Source of the DNA: Escherichia phage MRostami-2023e
DNA: 64,000 nt
Sequence record: OQ031495
Direction: 5' to 3' (one strand)
This document shows, in pieces, positions 6,448 through 63,153 of the stretch. Numbering within the stretch: the first letter of the stretch is position 1; every line of letters begins with the position of its first letter. Both the position numbers and the translations under genes were made by a program. Under the pieces are notes generated by a model, which was not told where the DNA came from, did no database searches, and saw only the letters and a list, made by a program, of their open reading frames with translations.

Positions 6448-6728
6448 CTTCACAAAACTGTTTACANNNNNNNNNNNNNNNNNNNNNNNNNNNNNNNNNN
6501 NNNNNNNNNNNNNNNNNNNNNNNNNNNNNNNNNNNNNNNNNNNNNNNNNNNNNNNNNNNNNNNNNNNNNNNNNNNNNNNNNNNNNNNNNNNNNNNNNNNN
6601 NNNNNNNNNNNNNNNNNNNNNNNNNNNNNNNNNNNNNNNNNNNNNNNNNNNNNNNNNNNNNNNNNNNNNNNNNNNNNNNNNNNNNNNNNNNNNNNNNNNN
6701 NNNNNNNNNNNNNNNNNNNNNNNNNNNN

Positions 6729-12232: not shown

Positions 12233-12595
12233 ATGAAAGCATATCAAATTCTTGAAGGCACACACAAAGGCACTATTTATTTTGAAGACGGTACTCAAGC
12301 CCGGATTATTGTCTCTAAGACTTTTAAAGAAGACGCTATTGTAGACCCGGAAATTTTCTACGGTTTGCATGCCCGTGAAATTGAAATTGAACATCAACCT
12401 AAAGTTAAAATTGAAGGTGGTCAACATCTGAACGTTAACGTTCTGCGTCGTGAAACTCTGGAAGATGCAGTTAAGCATCCAGAAAAATATCCGCAGTTGA
12501 CCATCCGTGTATCCGGTTATGCAGTTCGCTTTAACTCTCTGACTCCGGAACAGCAGCGCGACGTTATCGCTCGTACCTTTACTGAGAGTCTATAA
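12233..12595 (+). CDS. GrcA/YfiD-like autonomous glycyl-radical cofactor protein
   Basis: C-terminal [56 protein letters not shown] contains the glycyl-radical motif RVSGYAV; 3' half is GC-rich with host-like codons. Confidence 0.8.
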
Positions 12596-12819
12596 TGGCT
12601 AAATTGATTATAGAAGGGTCTGAAGATGTTTTAAAATGTTTTGCCGCCTGGTTTAGTTGCTCAGGCGAGCAATCATTCATTGAAGCATTTAGAATGGGTG
12701 ATATTACTGGAAACTATCCGGCAACTGATATCACTGTACGTGGATATGGTATTAATGAGCCTATCCAATTGGTCGAATATGACCTTGCCACCGATGAGGA
12801 AATTCCTTATGTCGATTGA
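12595..12819 (+). CDS. hypothetical protein (74 aa)
   Basis: ATG overlapping upstream stop. Confidence 0.5.
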   Translation: MAKLIIEGSEDVLKCFAAWFSCSGEQSFIEAFRMGDITGNYPATDITVRGYGINEPIQLVEYDLATDEEIPYVD

Positions 12820-13075
12820 AGATATTAAAGGCTACAAGCCACATACCGACGATAAAATCGGTAAAGTGAACGCTATTAAAGATGCAGAAGTCCGTCTTGG
12901 ATTGTTGTTTGATGCTCTGATTGAAGAAGCATATATCTTGAAAGAAAATGAAACAGAGCAACAAACCAAAGAAGATATGGATGCAGTACAGGCTCTTAAG
13001 TATGCTAAGCAACATCTAAAAGAAGCCAGCATGTGGGCCTGTCGTGCAGTATTTCGACCTGAGGAAAAATACTAA
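12809..13075 (+). CDS. hypothetical protein (88 aa)
   Basis: ATG at 12809 overlapping upstream stop; long upstream reading frame judged not coding. Confidence 0.45.
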   Translation: MSIEDIKGYKPHTDDKIGKVNAIKDAEVRLGLLFDALIEEAYILKENETEQQTKEDMDAVQALKYAKQHLKEASMWACRAVFRPEEKY

Positions 13076-13293
13076 TGGCTNNNNNNNNNNNNNNNNNNNN
13101 NNNNNNNNNNNNNNNNNNNNNNNNNNNNNNNNNNNNNNNNNNNNNNNNNNNNNNNNNNNNNNNNNNNNNNNNNNNNNNNNNNNNNNNNNNNNNNNNNNNN
13201 NNNNNNNNNNNNNNNNNNNNNNNNNNNNNNNNNNNNNNNNNNNNNNNNNNNNNNNNNNNNNNNNNNNNNNNNNNNNNNNNNNATCAAAGAGTA

Positions 13294-13325
13294 GTTTACT
13301 TCTCCTCTAGTTGTGTTACTATAGA
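13294..13325 (+). promoter_or_regulatory. T4-type early promoter candidate
   Basis: GTTTAC ... tgtTACTATag. Confidence 0.45.
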
Positions 13326-13350
13326 CCTGTCAACTAGAGGAGAAATCAAA

Positions 13351-13809
13351 ATGACTATCAATTCAGACGTTTTTATCCGCCGTAATAAACTCCGTCGAAT
13401 CTTTGAAACGGAGTTCCGCAAAATAAATGCCAGTATAAAAGATGCTGCAAAGTCTCTTGGACTACCAGGCTTTCATATCAAGTATTCTCAACATCTCTTA
13501 GATCGTGCCATCCAGAGAGAAATAGATGAGAATTACGTTTTTGAATTATTTCGTAAAGTAAAAAATCATGTTAAAGAAGTTGCAGAATTTTTATCAATGC
13601 CGGCACGTCCAGATGTTGATGAAGATTTTGTCGAAGGCGTCGAATATCGCCCAGGCCGTTTAGAAATAACTGATGGAAATCTTTGGTTAGGACTTACAGT
13701 CTGTCGCGAAAATCCAGCATTCAAAATGAAGACTCTTCAATGCAGAATGGCTATTATTAACAGTAAACGACTACCAGGAAAAGCTTCTAAAGCCGTGATT
13801 AAAATCTAG
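13351..13809 (+). CDS. regB: RegB-like sequence-specific endoribonuclease
   Basis: MTINSDVFIRRNKLRR...HIKYSQHLLDRAIQREIDE...CRMAIINS.RLPGKASKAVIK matches my memory of T4 RegB (153 aa); correct map position. Confidence 0.65.
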   Translation: MTINSDVFIRRNKLRRIFETEFRKINASIKDAAKSLGLPGFHIKYSQHLLDRAIQREIDENYVFELFRKVKNHVKEVAEFLSMPARPDVDEDFVEGVEYRPGRLEITDGNLWLGLTVCRENPAFKMKTLQCRMAIINSKRLPGKASKAVIKI

Positions 13810-13817
13810 AGGTAAAC

Positions 13818-14360
13818 ATGAGAAAAGCACTACTCGCTGGTCTATTTGCTCTTTCATTATCAGCACATAGCTCCGAGCATACTTTTAGTAATGTCCAACT
13901 CGATAACTTGAATTATGCTTATCAGTTTGGGGAACAGTTTTCTAAGGATGGAAAATTTAAAACGCATGAAAATATGCATAAGAAAGGACTTGGATACATA
14001 ATGGCCGCAATACTATGGCAAGAATCATCTGCCGGTATTAATCTTAAAGATAAGAAAGGTCACCATGCGTATGGAATGTTCCAAAATTATCTACCAACAA
14101 TGAGGGCAAGAATTAACCAGCTTGGTTACAATATGACTGATGCCCAAATTAAGAAAATGCTATCTAAGCGGTCTAATTCAGCCAGATGGGCTTATATAGA
14201 ATTTTCTTATTGGTTAAATATACATAACGGGGATATAAGAAAAGCTATATCCTCATATAATGCGGGATGGAAGACAAGTGCTGGAAGTAAATATGCTTCT
14301 GAAGTCCTAGAAAAGGCTAATTACCTTAAATCAAATAAACTACTGGAAATAAAAGAATGA
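13818..14360 (+). CDS. secreted lytic-transglycosylase (SLT-domain)-like protein
   Basis: N-terminal signal peptide; ES...AYGMFQ pattern resembling SLT catalytic ES and GLMQ motifs. Confidence 0.5.
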   Translation: MRKALLAGLFALSLSAHSSEHTFSNVQLDNLNYAYQFGEQFSKDGKFKTHENMHKKGLGYIMAAILWQESSAGINLKDKKGHHAYGMFQNYLPTMRARINQLGYNMTDAQIKKMLSKRSNSARWAYIEFSYWLNIHNGDIRKAISSYNAGWKTSAGSKYASEVLEKANYLKSNKLLEIKE

Positions 14361-14704
14361 CCAAAATGTTGGCTTTAATAGTTGGCTTGGTTTCATTTAA
14401 CGCTCTTGCTAATACTACATATACTGATGTAACGGAGTATACAAACAGAACGGCGTCTGATTATTGTGGTAAAAGTCAAGAGTGTAAAGTAGATTTTTCA
14501 CAAAAATTGTTATATGCGTATAAAGACGGAGAAAAAGATGGGGCGTCTAGTAGGTTCAAGGCGTCTACCTTAATTAAAAGATACTATAAAAAATGGCAAA
14601 TATTAGAATGCTCGGTGGCGGAACCTAAAGATAAGGCAGCATGCAATTCTATGGTGGACCGTCTAGTTGACTCTTATAATAGAGGACTTGCAGCAAGTGA
14701 TTAA
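14357..14704 (+). CDS. secreted/periplasmic small protein (115 aa)
   Basis: Signal peptide MTKMLALIVGLVSFNALA; Cys-containing mature part. Confidence 0.5.
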   Translation: MTKMLALIVGLVSFNALANTTYTDVTEYTNRTASDYCGKSQECKVDFSQKLLYAYKDGEKDGASSRFKASTLIKRYYKKWQILECSVAEPKDKAACNSMVDRLVDSYNRGLAASD

Positions 14705-15154
14705 AAACTATATCAAGGGCGATATTGTCGCCCTGTTTTCTAAAGGTAATAATATTGCTCATGGGTGTAATTGTTTTCATACAATGGGCGCCGGTGTAGC
14801 AGGCCAATTAGCAAAGGCTTATCCAAAAATTTTAGAAGCCGATAAACTTCAAACTGCATATGGAGACGAGTCTAAACTCGGGTCTTATTCGGTTTATGAA
14901 AAATATTTTAAGACCCATAAAGCTTATTGCTTTAATCTTTATACGCAGTTTGAGCCTGGACCTAATTTTGAGTACTCTGCTTTAATGAATTGTATAATAG
15001 AATTAAATGAATTCGGAAAGAATAAGATAACAAAGCCTGTAATTTATATGCCAAGAATTGGTGCCGGTATTGGTGGTGGAAACTGGGATGTCATCGAAGA
15101 GATTTTAGATACGTATTCCACTAAACTAGAAATTGTGATTGTTGATTGGGAACC
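14697..15154 (+). CDS. macro-domain (ADP-ribose-binding/processing) protein, 3' end masked
   Basis: GDIV..(N)AHGCNCF..MGAGVAGQL resembles macro-domain NAAN/GGGV motifs; GTG start at 14697 assumed; runs into N-run. Confidence 0.45.
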
Positions 15155-15578
15155 NNNNNNNNNNNNNNNNNNNNNNNNNNNNNNNNNNNNNNNNNNNNNN
15201 NNNNNNNNNNNNNNNNNNNNNNNNNNNNNNNNNNNNNNNNNNNNNNNNNNNNNNNNNNNNNNNNNNNNNNNNNNNNNNNNNNNNNNNNNNNNNNNNNNNN
15301 NNNNNNNNNNNNNNNNNNNNNNNNNNNNNNNNNNNNNNNNNNNNNNNNNNNNNNNNNNNNNNNNNNNNNNNNNNNNNNNNNNNNNNNNNNNNNNNNNNNN
15401 NNNNNNNNNNNNNNNNATGGACTGTTTTTTTTACTTTATGTAACGATGAAATGATATGTGATTTTGATTATTGGTGTTATTGCTATTGATACAATAAAGG
15501 ATGTACAAATCATACAGGTGAAGGTTTCTATTCCGGGTTTCAACCGTATCCAGACTTTGTNNNNNNNNGTGAACCTAA

Positions 15579-15761
15579 ATGAAATTAACTAAAGAAGAGA
15601 AAGCTAAACTGTTCGAACTTATCCATGACCTATTGGACGAGCAAGCAGCCACCAATGCGTACGATGAATATGCTCCTTTAACAGATGAAGAATATCAAGC
15701 ATTGATGGAATCATTTGACAGGAAAGAACAAGAACTCATTGACTACGTGAATTCACTATAA
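15579..15761 (+). CDS. hypothetical acidic small protein (60 aa)
   Basis: ORF between masked region and tk. Confidence 0.45.
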   Translation: MKLTKEEKAKLFELIHDLLDEQAATNAYDEYAPLTDEEYQALMESFDRKEQELIDYVNSL

Positions 15762-15770
15762 GGGACTCTT

Positions 15771-16352
15771 ATGGCTAGTTTAATTTTTACATATGCCGCT
15801 ATGAATGCTGGTAAGTCTGCTTCATTACTTACTGCCGCACATAACTATAAAGAACGTGGCATGGGTGTATTAGTTCTTAAACCGGCTATTGATACTCGCG
15901 ATTCAAAAGGTGAAATAGTCTCTCGTATTGGTATTCGTCAGGATGCCAATATAATTACAAAAGACATGGATATCTTTGAATTCTATAAATGGGCTGCAGC
16001 ACAAAAGGATATTCACTGTGTATTTGTTGACGAAGCTCAGTTCTTAACTACTGAAAAGGTGTATCAACTTAGTCGTATTGTTGACGTATACAATGTGCCG
16101 GTAATGGCATATGGACTACGAACAGATTTTAAAGGTAATCTATTTGAAGGTTCTCAAGCATTAATGGCTATTGCCGATAAGCTTGTTGAACTTAAAGGTG
16201 TCTGTCATTGTGGTAAAAAGGCCACAATGGTAGCTAGAGTCACGGAAGACGGACTTCCAATTACAGATGGCAGTCAAATTGAAATTGGTGATACCGATAG
16301 ATATGTGTCATTATGCCGGAAGCATTGGAATGATTTGACAGGGTTGTTATAA
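15771..16352 (+). CDS. tk: thymidine kinase
   Basis: P-loop AMNAGKS, Zn-finger CHCG...C; 193 aa as in T4 Tk. Confidence 0.9.
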   Translation: MASLIFTYAAMNAGKSASLLTAAHNYKERGMGVLVLKPAIDTRDSKGEIVSRIGIRQDANIITKDMDIFEFYKWAAAQKDIHCVFVDEAQFLTTEKVYQLSRIVDVYNVPVMAYGLRTDFKGNLFEGSQALMAIADKLVELKGVCHCGKKATMVARVTEDGLPITDGSQIEIGDTDRYVSLCRKHWNDLTGLL

Positions 16353-16379
16353 ATACTAATATCTAACCAAGAGGTATAT

Positions 16380-16592
16380 ATGCAGCAATTAAACGAAAGA
16401 CAACTTCGTAATCTTACTGTAACCCAATTGGATGAAATCCGAAGAGAATTAGGACATTCTATTTCTCATTTAAACGAGGATATCCGTCAAACTGGTTCTA
16501 AAGCTGATTATACACGCAAGCGCAAGCTGGAAAAATACCTCACAGATGTTAAGGCCGTCCAAAGGCGAAAAATAAATACTGGCCAAAATTAA
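16380..16592 (+). CDS. hypothetical protein (position of T4 rI.1)
   Basis: ORF with AAGAGGTATATATG start. Confidence 0.5.
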
Positions 16593-16604
16593 CAGGAGGC
16601 CTAT

Positions 16605-16907
16605 ATGGCCTTAAGAGCGATAGCTGTCATGGCGATGCTGGGGTTTTTTGCAGCAACAACTCCTAACGTTGGTACTGCATATGTTGACCCATATTTTGAT
16701 AACTTTATGGAATCAGGGATTAAAAACGTATATACTTTGTTTGAAATTCAAAATGTCGAGAATTCTGAAAAATTCTATAAGTATATGGCAAAGCATTACA
16801 AAAATAGCCCCTGTGATGATGCATTTGAATGTCATGAACAAGGCATAAAAACTGCCAGACAATTTGCCGAGTTCATGAAAATAAAATTAGAGCCTACATC
16901 TATCTAA
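16605..16907 (+). CDS. rI: lysis-inhibition regulator rI (antiholin)
   Basis: Signal-anchor N-terminus and DPYFDNFMESGIKNVYTLFE...C..FEC match remembered T4 RI. Confidence 0.8.
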   Translation: MALRAIAVMAMLGFFAATTPNVGTAYVDPYFDNFMESGIKNVYTLFEIQNVENSEKFYKYMAKHYKNSPCDDAFECHEQGIKTARQFAEFMKIKLEPTSI

Positions 16908-16912
16908 TTTAC

Positions 16913-16940
16913 TAGCCCCTTCCTTATGGTTGGGGCTTTT
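16913..16940 (+). terminator. rho-independent terminator
   Basis: agcccc...ggggct then TTTTT; near-copy of terminator at 723. Confidence 0.6.
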
Positions 16941-16951
16941 TGGCATCTATC

Positions 16952-16981
16952 AGTTTACTTCTCCTCAGGTTGTGTTATAGT
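16952..16981 (+). promoter_or_regulatory. T4-type early promoter candidate
   Basis: GTTTAC ... TGtTATAGT. Confidence 0.45.
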
Positions 16982-17008
16982 AAACCTTACTTACTAGAGG
17001 AGAACGTT

Positions 17009-56836: not shown

Positions 56837-57487
56837 ATGATTTATTACATGCACAAAAACGCACCATTTAAATATGGTAAATTTCCTAATGCACAATGTT
56901 ATAATATAACGCCGAATGAAAATAATAACGGATACCATATTGGTGTAATTTTTGTAATTGTTAAAGATAACGAAATCGTTGCCTGGGCAGATTTTAAAGG
57001 TACAACATATGATGTTAATCCTGTGCCTTTCACGTATTACAATATAATGGATTTGGCATATGATTATAATTGGTTTACTCATGACACGTTGGCTCATATT
57101 GAAGGTGTAGGATTTGACATCTCTTATTCTAGTTATTCATTATGTCCTATGAGCCGAGCTCACGGTAAAGATGTATCATATCTTTCAATTCGGAAACGTG
57201 TAAACTTCAAACGTAGCACAGAGTATGTTGGTGGACTCTTTGTTAAAGATAATAAAATAATCCGTATTAGTTATCCTTTAAGTGTAGGTCAAAAAGATGT
57301 TGATGTTGATTTAGACTTAACCGAAAATAACATTAATCGTATTGCTTCTGTATATTTTGATATCGATGAAAAAATTGTAGTGTGTGGATACGAATTACCA
57401 CCTGAAGAAAAGGCTGAAGCAATTGAAGTCGAATTAGAAATTTCTGTTGATGACCAAATATTTAATGCATTTATGAATCGAGGTTAA
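56837..57487 (+). CDS. hypothetical protein (216 aa)
   Basis: ORF coupled to sp. Confidence 0.55.
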   Translation: MIYYMHKNAPFKYGKFPNAQCYNITPNENNNGYHIGVIFVIVKDNEIVAWADFKGTTYDVNPVPFTYYNIMDLAYDYNWFTHDTLAHIEGVGFDISYSSYSLCPMSRAHGKDVSYLSIRKRVNFKRSTEYVGGLFVKDNKIIRISYPLSVGQKDVDVDLDLTENNINRIASVYFDIDEKIVVCGYELPPEEKAEAIEVELEISVDDQIFNAFMNRG

Positions 57488-61905: not shown

Positions 61906-62487
61906 ATGACATGTCAATCTGAACTTCAAGAACGTGAATACCTAACAAATCTGATTGATAGCAAATTCACCCGCCAAGAACAAAACATTCTCTGGGCTTG
62001 CACCGATTCTAAGGAAGACCCGGATTTCCACTATGAATTAGACCATCTTGTTCGTAAGCATATGACTTCTACAGTACCAGTAGAACTCTACCGTGGTGTA
62101 ACTCCAGAAGAAGTAGAACGTCTTTCCCTTCTTTCTGTTGGATGCCATTGGTCTCCTGGGCGAGTAACATCGTTCACAACTGATTTCAGTACAGCTCGTC
62201 AATTCTCTGGGAGATGGGAATATCAGACGTACACTATTCTTAGTCTCAGGAATGCTCCATTCATTTTTGATTACTACCAAAACATGATTAACATTGTACT
62301 CGCCGGAAAGAACCCTAAGCATGTTATGGAAGAAACGCGTGTTGACGTCCTAGATATGATTGAATCTGAACAAGAGTACATGGTCTCAGGCATCTCTCGA
62401 TTTGAGATTGTGGAAATTGAAGACTTAGAATATGACCCTTTATCTCGATTATACAAAATCATTCATTTGAAAATGTTGAATTTTTAG
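61906..62487 (+). CDS. ModA/ModB-family ADP-ribosyltransferase, paralog 1
   Basis: R-S-E pattern: LYRGV (Arg), FSTA (Ser-Thr), ESEQEYM (catalytic Glu-x-Glu); position beside soc as T4 modA/modB. Confidence 0.6.
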   Translation: MTCQSELQEREYLTNLIDSKFTRQEQNILWACTDSKEDPDFHYELDHLVRKHMTSTVPVELYRGVTPEEVERLSLLSVGCHWSPGRVTSFTTDFSTARQFSGRWEYQTYTILSLRNAPFIFDYYQNMINIVLAGKNPKHVMEETRVDVLDMIESEQEYMVSGISRFEIVEIEDLEYDPLSRLYKIIHLKMLNF

Positions 62488-62544
62488 TGTACAAACTCTT
62501 TAGATGATGATACTATACCTTTATCAACCACAGGAGAAACCTAA

Positions 62545-63153
62545 ATGTTTATGCCGTATAACGAGTGTGAAATTGAAGAAATGGTTCGTCGTGCTCAAAA
62601 CCCCGAATATCAAGATGTATTGCAGTACGAAATTGATAGTCAATTCAACGATAATGAACAAAGCATCCTTTGGCAGTGTATGGAAAACAAGCCAGACTGT
62701 ATTCAACAGGAGTTAAGTTCAATCGTTCGTAGAAATTGGACGTCTTCTGTTCCTGAGACAATGTATCGTGGAATCTCTAAGAAAACTATGGCCACACTTG
62801 ATGATAAAGGCATTGGTAGTATTATTAAATTTGACAGAGTAATGAGCTTCAGCCCAGTGTTCGGTGTAGCACGTAACTTTGCTTCGTATAATTTTTACGG
62901 AACATTTAATATGTTCTGCATCAAAGATGCACCATTTGCTTTCAACTTCCGTGAACATATGCTTAACATGATTCTGGCTGCGCCATCTTGTGAGTTCAAT
63001 GGAGCTTTCCCTGAAGCGACAAGACGGTCTAATGCTAGACTTATATCTGACGAATGTGAATTTATGCTCCCTATAGGGACTACACTGCGTGTAGATTCTA
63101 TTATTCAAGATGGACGTTATACAATCTGGAATCTGTCTATTGTCAGTTACTGA
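62545..63153 (+). CDS. ModA/ModB-family ADP-ribosyltransferase, paralog 2
   Basis: MYRGIS, FSPVFGVAR, DECEF; N-terminal region alignable with 61906 product (ILW.C...K.D). Confidence 0.6.
   Translation: MFMPYNECEIEEMVRRAQNPEYQDVLQYEIDSQFNDNEQSILWQCMENKPDCIQQELSSIVRRNWTSSVPETMYRGISKKTMATLDDKGIGSIIKFDRVMSFSPVFGVARNFASYNFYGTFNMFCIKDAPFAFNFREHMLNMILAAPSCEFNGAFPEATRRSNARLISDECEFMLPIGTTLRVDSIIQDGRYTIWNLSIVSY

Follow-up and report, generated by a model that had tools for sequence, protein, structure and literature searches.

The gene tk.4 of bacteriophage T4 was annotated as a macro/A1pp gene two decades ago, and its RefSeq product (NP_049723) carries the label "phosphatase; contains A1pp phosphatase motif". 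A role against DarTG2, a bacterial defence system that blocks phage DNA by ADP-ribosylating it, was reported for the gene in 2025, when HIDEN-SEQ, using a T4 transposon library on a DarTG2 host, returned tk.4 as the single significant hit and a clean deletion of the gene made T4 sensitive to DarTG2 (bioRxiv 10.1101/2025.11.20.689424). The gene was renamed adfM, for anti-DarT factor Macrodomain, and the authors propose, by analogy with DarG, that T4 AdfM removes ADP-ribose from DNA; the evidence on T4 tk.4 is genetic and comes from this one preprint (bioRxiv 10.1101/2025.11.20.689424). Phages T2 and T4 without the NADAR enzyme AdfN still resist DarTG2 (PMC11825919), which is consistent with the existence of a separate anti-DarT2 factor.

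Removal of this kind of DNA modification by macrodomains has precedents. SCO6735 of Streptomyces coelicolor cleaves ADP-ribose off thymidine in DNA and gives protection from DarT; its Gln85 has been described as equivalent to K84/K80, the Q85A variant being inactive and N27S nearly so, and in the mechanism proposed for it an activated water attacks while the glutamine positions the distal ribose (PMC9411070). Catalytically dead forms of SCO6735, DarG and TARG1 all still inhibit DarT in vitro (PMC9411070). A phage protein that was independently named AdfM as well, gp104 of PhiKZ, removes DarT2 marks from DNA in vitro, and its activity is lowered by the substitution N23A (PMC13309987). A further activity is represented by the Poa1p-like phage macrodomains designated Adpp, which sit in NARP1 operons and dephosphorylate the ADP-ribose-1''-phosphate (ADPR-1''P) made by aRES, a RES-domain NADase, for the rebuilding of NAD+ (bioRxiv 10.64898/2026.01.28.702374).

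Here we compare with these systems a macrodomain gene found in a 64,000-nucleotide stretch of DNA from Escherichia phage MRostami-2023e (OQ031495), the whole of which is referred to below as the window. By megablast, the region matches Mosigvirus phages at 98-100% identity (vB_EQ1, 100%; ECO26.1 3-1, 99.9%; moskry, 99.1%), and on these nucleotide matches the window comes from a Mosigvirus phage, RB69-like and of the T4 type. The order of genes in the window, regB - vs.1 - vs - macro - tk.3 ... tk, is common to T4, moskry and ESCO47, the T4-like order in full being regB, vs.1, vs, macro, tk.3/tk.2/tk.1 or equivalents, tk, rI.1 and rI; in VR20 and UGJNEcP4, too, the macro gene comes directly after vs, within the early region that runs from regB through vs to tk. 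The window protein and T4 Tk.4 are identical at 128 of 152 residues (84%), with no gaps and E=2e-102. Together with the T4-matching gene order, this identity marks the window ORF, on comparative sequence grounds, as the Mosigvirus ortholog of T4 tk.4 (adfM), so that we are dealing with a gene that is already known, a conserved copy of a long-annotated T4 gene. The two proteins share a length of 155 aa and identical active-site residues, and both genes overlap vs and lie upstream of tk.3...tk, whereas the start codon is ATG in T4 and GTG in the window. None of the 24 substitutions between the two proteins falls at an invariant position of the family.

The ORF can be read for 152 codons before a 262-nt mask begins at 15155 (Table 1). 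The initial annotation held that the 3' end of the gene is hidden by this mask, and the ORF does run into 15155, but the hidden part comes to only about three codons by comparison with ECO26.1 3-1 and ESCO47. In these two relatives, which have the same downstream genes, the macro ORF ends in ...WEPLL*, at a point equivalent to window position 15164, and the protein encoded by the ECO26.1 3-1 gene is 100% identical to the window protein. The last three codons and stop (15155-15164) are therefore given here as read from these relatives, and the full window protein would comprise 155 aa with the C-terminus ...EPLL*. Downstream of the macro gene, both relatives have tk.3, then a short ORF rich in Cys, then a tk.1-like gene and finally tk. 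Since the window sequence past 15417, which is unmasked, matches the tail of the Cys-rich ORF, what lies under the mask is most likely the end of the macro gene (its last three codons), tk.3 and the beginning of the Cys-rich ORF. The Cys-rich ORF in the window shows an apparent in-frame TGA at 15480-15495. In vB_EQ1, about 0.4 kb has been deleted between two GAACC repeats, which fuses the macro gene to ...EPK* and gives its ORF the terminus ...WEPK*. Separately, in at least one close record, that of vB_EQ1, the macro gene is started too late, and active-site residues are thereby cut off.

Table 1. Features of the macrodomain locus, in window coordinates
Feature	Coordinates	Strand	Basis
Shine-Dalgarno GAGGA (14684-14688) and GTG start codon (14697-14699)	14684..14699	+	sequence; T4 comparison
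Macrodomain gene, ortholog of T4 tk.4 / adfM	14697..15164	+	ORF, Pfam Macro, T4 identity, synteny
Conserved 8-bp hairpin AGGGCGAT-ATT-GTCGCCCT	14716..14734	+	terminator-like match, 19 nt inside the ORF
Active-site segment H22-G-C-N25-C-F-H-T-M-G-A-G-V-A-G36	14760..14804	+	conservation, alignment
N80-L-Y82-T83-Q84 motif	14934..14948	+	invariance, hhalign, profile search, MAFFT
Second glycine-rich diphosphate-binding loop, P119-R-I-G-A-G-I-G-G-G128	15051..15080	+	conservation, alignment

The start of the gene lies within the last codons of vs, whose stop codon is at 14702-14704, giving an 8-nt overlap, and the GAGGA Shine-Dalgarno sequence stands 8 nt upstream of the GTG. Such an arrangement is typical of translational coupling. 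In T4, a GAGGA is found at an equal distance from the tk.4 ATG, which likewise overlaps the vs stop, and the N-terminus of the window protein aligns with T4 Tk.4 from residue 1 on. A dN/dS of about 0.07, obtained against the T4 ortholog and the ESCO47 ortholog alike, indicates that the gene is functional and under purifying selection. Three minus-strand ORFs that overlap it (52, 39 and 30 aa) are without support.

Signals at the RNA level were sought around the gene. The 8-bp stem of the hairpin inside the ORF is identical in T4, ESCO47, VR20 and UGJNEcP4, and a Krischvirus shows one one-sided change; the hairpin is kept in six T4-type phages, although the window and T4 differ by a dS of 1.27. 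No covariation was seen in it across the six orthologs by consensus folding, and the hairpin may only reflect the codons for GDIVA. A helix in which nucleotides 14735-14741 would sequester the Shine-Dalgarno sequence was predicted from the single-sequence fold (z=-2.8) and discarded when it was lost in the consensus fold of the six orthologs, which keeps the internal hairpin alone. In view of the loss of this helix and the lack of covariation, we make no claim of RNA regulation. Over 12500-16600, a scan for sigma-70 promoters yielded no more sites than chance would (11, with 12.0 expected), and no Rfam family was recognised in 13000-17000.

Assignment of the protein to the macrodomains, which the initial annotation had proposed from the motifs GDIVALFSKGNNIAHGCNCF...MGAGVAG, both present in the ORF, is borne out by profile and structure comparisons. 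The match to Pfam Macro (PF01661) spans positions 2-117 of the 118-position profile and, at 28.5 bits (E=1.6e-6), exceeds the gathering score of 22. From an alignment of 64 homologs, AlphaFold2 gave a model with a pLDDT of 95.1 and a pTM of 0.90. The model has a macro fold, in three layers (alpha/beta/alpha), the absence of which had been named as what would refute the assignment. With this model, Foldseek retrieved 119 PDB chains at or below an E-value of 1e-3; every one of the best 20 is a macrodomain (TM 0.65-0.81), and the E-values include 5e-9 for TARG1, 1e-8 for Poa1p, 5e-8 for DarG, 1.7e-7 for BT1257 and 1.3e-6 for SCO6735. As modelled, then, the window protein is a genuine macrodomain, a stand-alone domain of 155 aa belonging to the ALC1/TARG1-like class.

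By sequence, its nearest neighbours are BT1257 and yeast Poa1p. Single-sequence comparison gave E-values of 9e-11 for BT1257, 7e-9 for yeast Poa1p, 7e-5 for SCO6735 and 3e-3 for DarG, and a family-profile search of the PDB gave 1.2e-13 for Poa1p and 1.3e-13 for SCO6735. The protein also matches PHROG 335 ("phosphatase") at E=8.5e-66. In NCBIfam, the sole match is to the DarG antitoxin model NF048014, which it fits over positions 4-139 of 338 with a score of 32 bits, where the cutoff is 250. Homologs of the window protein were found by tblastn in 2,845 of 50,697 phage records (~5.6%).

The alignment of the 64 homologs, drawn from a large protein collection and 38-96% identical, contains 16 invariant positions: H22, G23, N25, C26, G33, A35, D49, G62, N80, Y82, T83, Q84, P119, I121, G122 and G124. 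Positions I125, G127 and G128 are nearly invariant. The segment from H22 to G36 holds the conserved His and Asn together with the first glycine-rich ADP-ribose/phosphate-binding loop (MGAGVAG, residues 30-36); H22 aligns with H23 of Poa1p and T29 with Poa1p S30, while N25 aligns with the conserved Asn of DarG and of PhiKZ gp104 (N23). The H-x-x-N spacing of H22 and N25 equals that of H24 and N27 in SCO6735 (numbering from PMC9411070). The second loop is matched in the alignments by PRIGCG in TARG1 and BT1257 and by PPLGAGNGG in DarG, so that the conserved Asn and both glycine-rich loops (the second being GAGIGGG, residues 122-128) have counterparts in TARG1, DarG and BT1257.

In three independent alignments, Q84 stands where DarG and TARG1 have their catalytic lysine (K80 in DarG of T. 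aquaticus and M. tuberculosis, K84 in TARG1). With hhalign, the family aligned to DarG of T. aquaticus (probability 97.6) with NLYTQ paired to NFPTK; the family-profile search of the PDB paired NLYTQ with YLITK of TARG1; and a MAFFT alignment also put Q84 in the DarG/TARG1 lysine column. The only characterised macrodomain that we found with a Gln at the lysine position is Streptomyces SCO6735, for which the equivalence of Gln85 to K84/K80 is taken from PMC9411070. SCO6735 (PDB 5E3B) resembles the window protein in fold (Foldseek TM 0.72), in the Gln-for-Lys replacement and in the equivalents of the His, the Asn and the glycine loops. The two are only ~22% identical, however, and SCO6735, which is cellular, has an electropositive surface for binding DNA, whereas the window protein is phage-borne and mildly acidic (predicted pI 5.9); for the SCO6735 lysines K34 and K89 no clear equivalents were found in the window protein.

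DarG (PDB 5M31/5M3E/5M3I; NF048014) shares with the window protein the macro class and fold and, presumably, a substrate, the ADPr-thymidine made by DarT2. Identity, however, is ~20%, Lys80 is replaced by Gln84, and DarG has a C-terminal DarT-binding domain and an adjacent darT, while the window protein has neither and is flanked by vs and tk.3. Membership of the DarG family was ruled out by the Lys-to-Gln change, by the lack of a second domain and by the 32-bit score. PhiKZ gp104 is alike in being a stand-alone phage macrodomain that counters DarTG2 and bears the same name (PMC13309987), but by sequence it stands close to DarG (E=9e-25 with the M. tuberculosis protein) and keeps the lysine, in a PTK motif, where the window protein has YTQ. 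BLASTP between gp104 and the window protein gave an alignment of just 23 residues; with this and the PTK/YTQ difference, PhiKZ AdfM was rejected as a member of the same family, the two having only the macro superfamily in common. The two AdfMs are different macrodomain lineages, which seem to have converged on one counter-defence role.

From these comparisons and the phenotype of the T4 ortholog, we consider it likely that the window protein hydrolytically removes the ADP-ribose placed by DarT2 on thymidines of phage single-stranded DNA, probably by Gln-type, SCO6735-like chemistry. That the protein might reverse ADP-ribosylation of host-defence origin had been suggested in the initial annotation, and outside support comes from T4, in which the 84% identical tk.4 is required against DarTG2. 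Catalysis by the window protein on ADP-ribosylated DNA is what we infer from this analogy, and chemistry like that of SCO6735 rather than DarG is suggested by the H-x-x-N pair (H22, N25), Q84 and the glycine loop, all arranged as in SCO6735. In the sequence of events that we envisage, the macro gene would be expressed early, probably co-transcribed with vs and with its translation coupled to that of vs, and the protein would bind the ADP-ribose put by the host toxin DarT2 on N3 of single-stranded DNA thymidines. Q84, held by N25, would position the distal ribose so that an activated water can attack it, unlike the lysine chemistry of DarG and TARG1; hydrolysis of the C1''-N glycosidic bond would then release ADP-ribose and restore replicable DNA, and the phage would escape the abortive defence exerted by DarTG2.

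Several observations count against removal of the DarT2 mark. By sequence, Poa1p and BT1257 are nearer to the window protein than DarG is, and the catalytic lysine and the DarT-binding domain of DarG are both absent. In addition, the predicted pI of 5.9 contrasts with the electropositive surface described for SCO6735, and the protein is 37% identical to an Adpp-type macrodomain of a NARP1 operon.

The rival that survives best is an activity as an ADPR-1''-phosphate phosphatase, converting the ADPR-1''P made by aRES to ADP-ribose for NAD+ rebuilding. Poa1p, an enzyme of this type (PDB 6LFQ-6LFU), is among the closest characterised sequences in both the single-sequence and the profile searches, and by sequence the window protein belongs with the Poa1p-like subfamily, including the equivalent of His23 (H22). 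The phosphatase label of PHROG 335 recurs in many GenBank records and is implied by the historical "A1pp phosphatase" annotation. As a stand-in for the Adpp of Vibrio phage Gary, which dephosphorylates ADPR-1''P (bioRxiv 10.64898/2026.01.28.702374), we used gp174 of Vibrio phage Chloris, which lies between Adps-like and Namat-like genes exactly as Adpp does in Gary. Chloris gp174, at 37% identity to the window protein, has the HxCNCF and NxY[GT]Q motifs in common with it, so that T4-type AdfM and Adpp are, by sequence, members of one phage family. Both reactions take off the C1'' substituent of ADP-ribose, and one active site could plausibly serve both; for this reason the window protein might well show some phosphatase activity in vitro.

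As the biological function, however, we regard dephosphorylation of ADPR-1''P as unlikely. Adpp works with Adps and Namat, and tblastn with the Adps-like and Namat-like proteins of two phages gave no match at E<0.1 in the window and in the rest of the vB_EQ1 genome except ~0.5 kb, so that the phage would have no pathway in which to use ADPR. The macro gene lies outside any NAD-metabolism context, between vs and tk.3, the reported T4 tk.4 phenotype is specific to DarTG2, and the loop that follows the Gln is ~7 residues longer in two NARP-associated homologs than in the T4-type proteins.

The shared family membership allows a broader reading, which we put forward tentatively and hold to be possible though rather improbable: that the Gln-type, Poa1p-like family uses a single active site for two counter-defence activities, taking DarT2-made ADP-ribose off thymidine in DNA (T4 Tk.4/AdfM) and dephosphorylating ADPR-1''P (Adpp), T4-type proteins being either bifunctional or different from Adpp mainly in the post-Gln loop, which is shorter by ~7 residues. 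If this were true, T4-type AdfM would use SCO6735-like water activation and not the lysine mechanism of DarG, and its origin would be independent of that of PhiKZ-type AdfM.

Removal of the DarT2 mark by catalysis also has to be weighed against binding. Because catalytically dead SCO6735 also inhibits DarT in vitro, as do dead DarG and TARG1 (PMC9411070), protection could come from binding of DarT2 instead, and macrodomains, as the Pfam Macro match implies for this one, are generic binders of ADP-ribose. A non-catalytic protein, which would inhibit DarT2 stoichiometrically or would bind or soak up molecules derived from ADP-ribose (O-acetyl-ADP-ribose or signalling nucleotides, for example), is nevertheless a highly unlikely explanation: N25, Q84 and H22, whose counterparts matter for catalysis in relatives, are invariant in the 64 homologs down to 38% identity, as expected of an enzyme, and the single 155-aa domain lacks a DarG-like C-terminal domain for binding DarT. 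Binding of ADP-ribose-derived signals, raised as an option in the initial annotation, is not indicated.

The least credible rival is that the protein reverses or edits the ADP-ribosylation (or RNAylation) of host proteins by the phage's own Alt/ModA/ModB transferases. Pairs of writer and eraser are common in ADP-ribosylation systems, and the writers are real: the two ModA/ModB-like ORFs noted earlier at 61906-63153 (61906-62487 and 62545-63153) match PHROG 832, "RNA polymerase ADP-ribosylase", at ~1e-38 and are 30-38% identical to T4 ModB/ModA, both scoring better with ModB, and an Alt-like transferase is present in the close relative vB_EQ1. T4 Alt, ModA and ModB, however, modify arginine, from which ADP-ribose is removed by ARH1/DraG-type enzymes; ALC1/TARG1-like macrodomains cleave Glu/Asp esters, thymidine-ADPr and the 1''-phosphate and are not known to cleave Arg-ADPr. 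Some 47 kb separate the macro gene from the mod genes, and none of the relatives examined has them together. In the T4 screen, tk.4 was reported to score under the DarTG2 condition alone, its one significant phenotype, and a T4 tk.4 deletion mutant can be obtained and plates on hosts without DarTG2. The proposed link to the phage's own transferases is without support and can be given next to no weight.

Only three points here may be unfamiliar to specialists: the Gln-for-Lys substitution, the membership of one family with Adpp, and the fact that the name AdfM is in use twice and now spans two non-orthologous lineages, with Gln in the T4 type and Lys in the PhiKZ type. The "phosphatase" labels that have spread through phage annotation are homology guesses. 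The phage itself, which is RB69-like, appears to pair its Tk.4/AdfM ortholog, which presumably acts against DarTG2, with an AdfA allele that has the Arg variant reported to be inactive against DarT1, a combination relevant to predicting which DarTG systems restrict the phage.

The deletion found in the related phage vB_EQ1 (locus L001) indicates how the small genes downstream of the macro gene come and go. vB_EQ1 lacks both tk.3 and the small Cys-rich ORF (L001 3855-3862 versus window 15147-15580) and is otherwise identical here. The missing segment, of ~0.4 kb, is bounded by two short GAACC repeats, and its loss converts the C-terminus of the macro protein from EPLL* to EPK*. Since the deletion lies between these repeats, recombination at short repeats is a route by which the small tk.x genes are gained and lost.

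In the window, the Cys-rich ORF itself is interrupted by an in-frame TGA at 15487-15489, giving the reading ...WCYCY*YNKGCTNH..., where the related phages ESCO47 and ECO26.1 3-1 read ...WCYCSNKGCSNH.... Its unmasked part reaches a best identity of only about 85-89% with any phage record, against 99-100% for the flanking genes. Possible explanations are that the ORF is a pseudogene, that this patch is recombinant or that the sequence contains an error. As a separate observation, two of the ten masked stretches in the window, 6467-6728 and 15155-15416, are equally long, at exactly 262 nt.

Coordinates of the features considered, in window numbering
Feature	Position	Strand	Remarks
Terminator-like 8-bp GC-rich hairpin, AGGGCGAT-ATT-GTCGCCCT, followed by GTTTTCT	14716-14734		19 nt within macro ORF
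Small Cys-rich ORF, unmasked part	15417-15578		Between tk.3 and tk.1-like gene
T4 gp61.2/AdfA ortholog	56837-57484	+	65% identity; adjoins primase gene
First ADP-ribosyltransferase ORF	61906-62487		
Second ADP-ribosyltransferase ORF	62545-63153		

The macro CDS in the vB_EQ1 record (CDS0027, L001 3485-3862) begins at an internal ATG, Met30, compared with 14697 in the window, and this start cuts away H22 and N25, residues of the active-site segment that are invariant among 64 members of this family. The upstream start is the one used in moskry and T4. The family is widely labelled "Phosphatase", on the basis of homology only. The hairpin within the macro ORF is conserved in T4, ESCO47, VR20, UGJNEcP4 and a Krischvirus, despite synonymous divergence that is saturated elsewhere; orthologs from phages of Klebsiella and Serratia lack it, and it shows no covariation.

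For both ADP-ribosyltransferase ORFs, T4 ModB outscored ModA in tblastn (5.9e-24 and 7.9e-27 for ModB), and ModA was matched by the second ORF only (3.9e-18). With both ORFs nearer to ModB, the ModA/ModB assignment in MRostami-2023e does not correspond one-to-one with T4. The AdfA ortholog carries Arg at the site of the T4 His; this is the RB69-like R164 variant, which reportedly has no activity against DarT1 (PMC11825919).

Homologs of the window macro protein also occur in NAD-salvage-type gene clusters of Vibrio phage Chloris (L004 2617-5647) and Acinetobacter phage D22 (L005 440-3974). In Chloris, the macro gene lies between a ribose-phosphate pyrophosphokinase-like gene and a nicotinamide phosphoribosyltransferase-like gene, in that order, and in D22 it comes after both of these enzyme genes; both layouts agree with that of the published NAD+-rebuilding operon NARP1-AP. 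The presence of macro homologs in NARP1-AP-like clusters suggests that one and the same macro family, to which the window protein belongs, serves a different counter-defence there.
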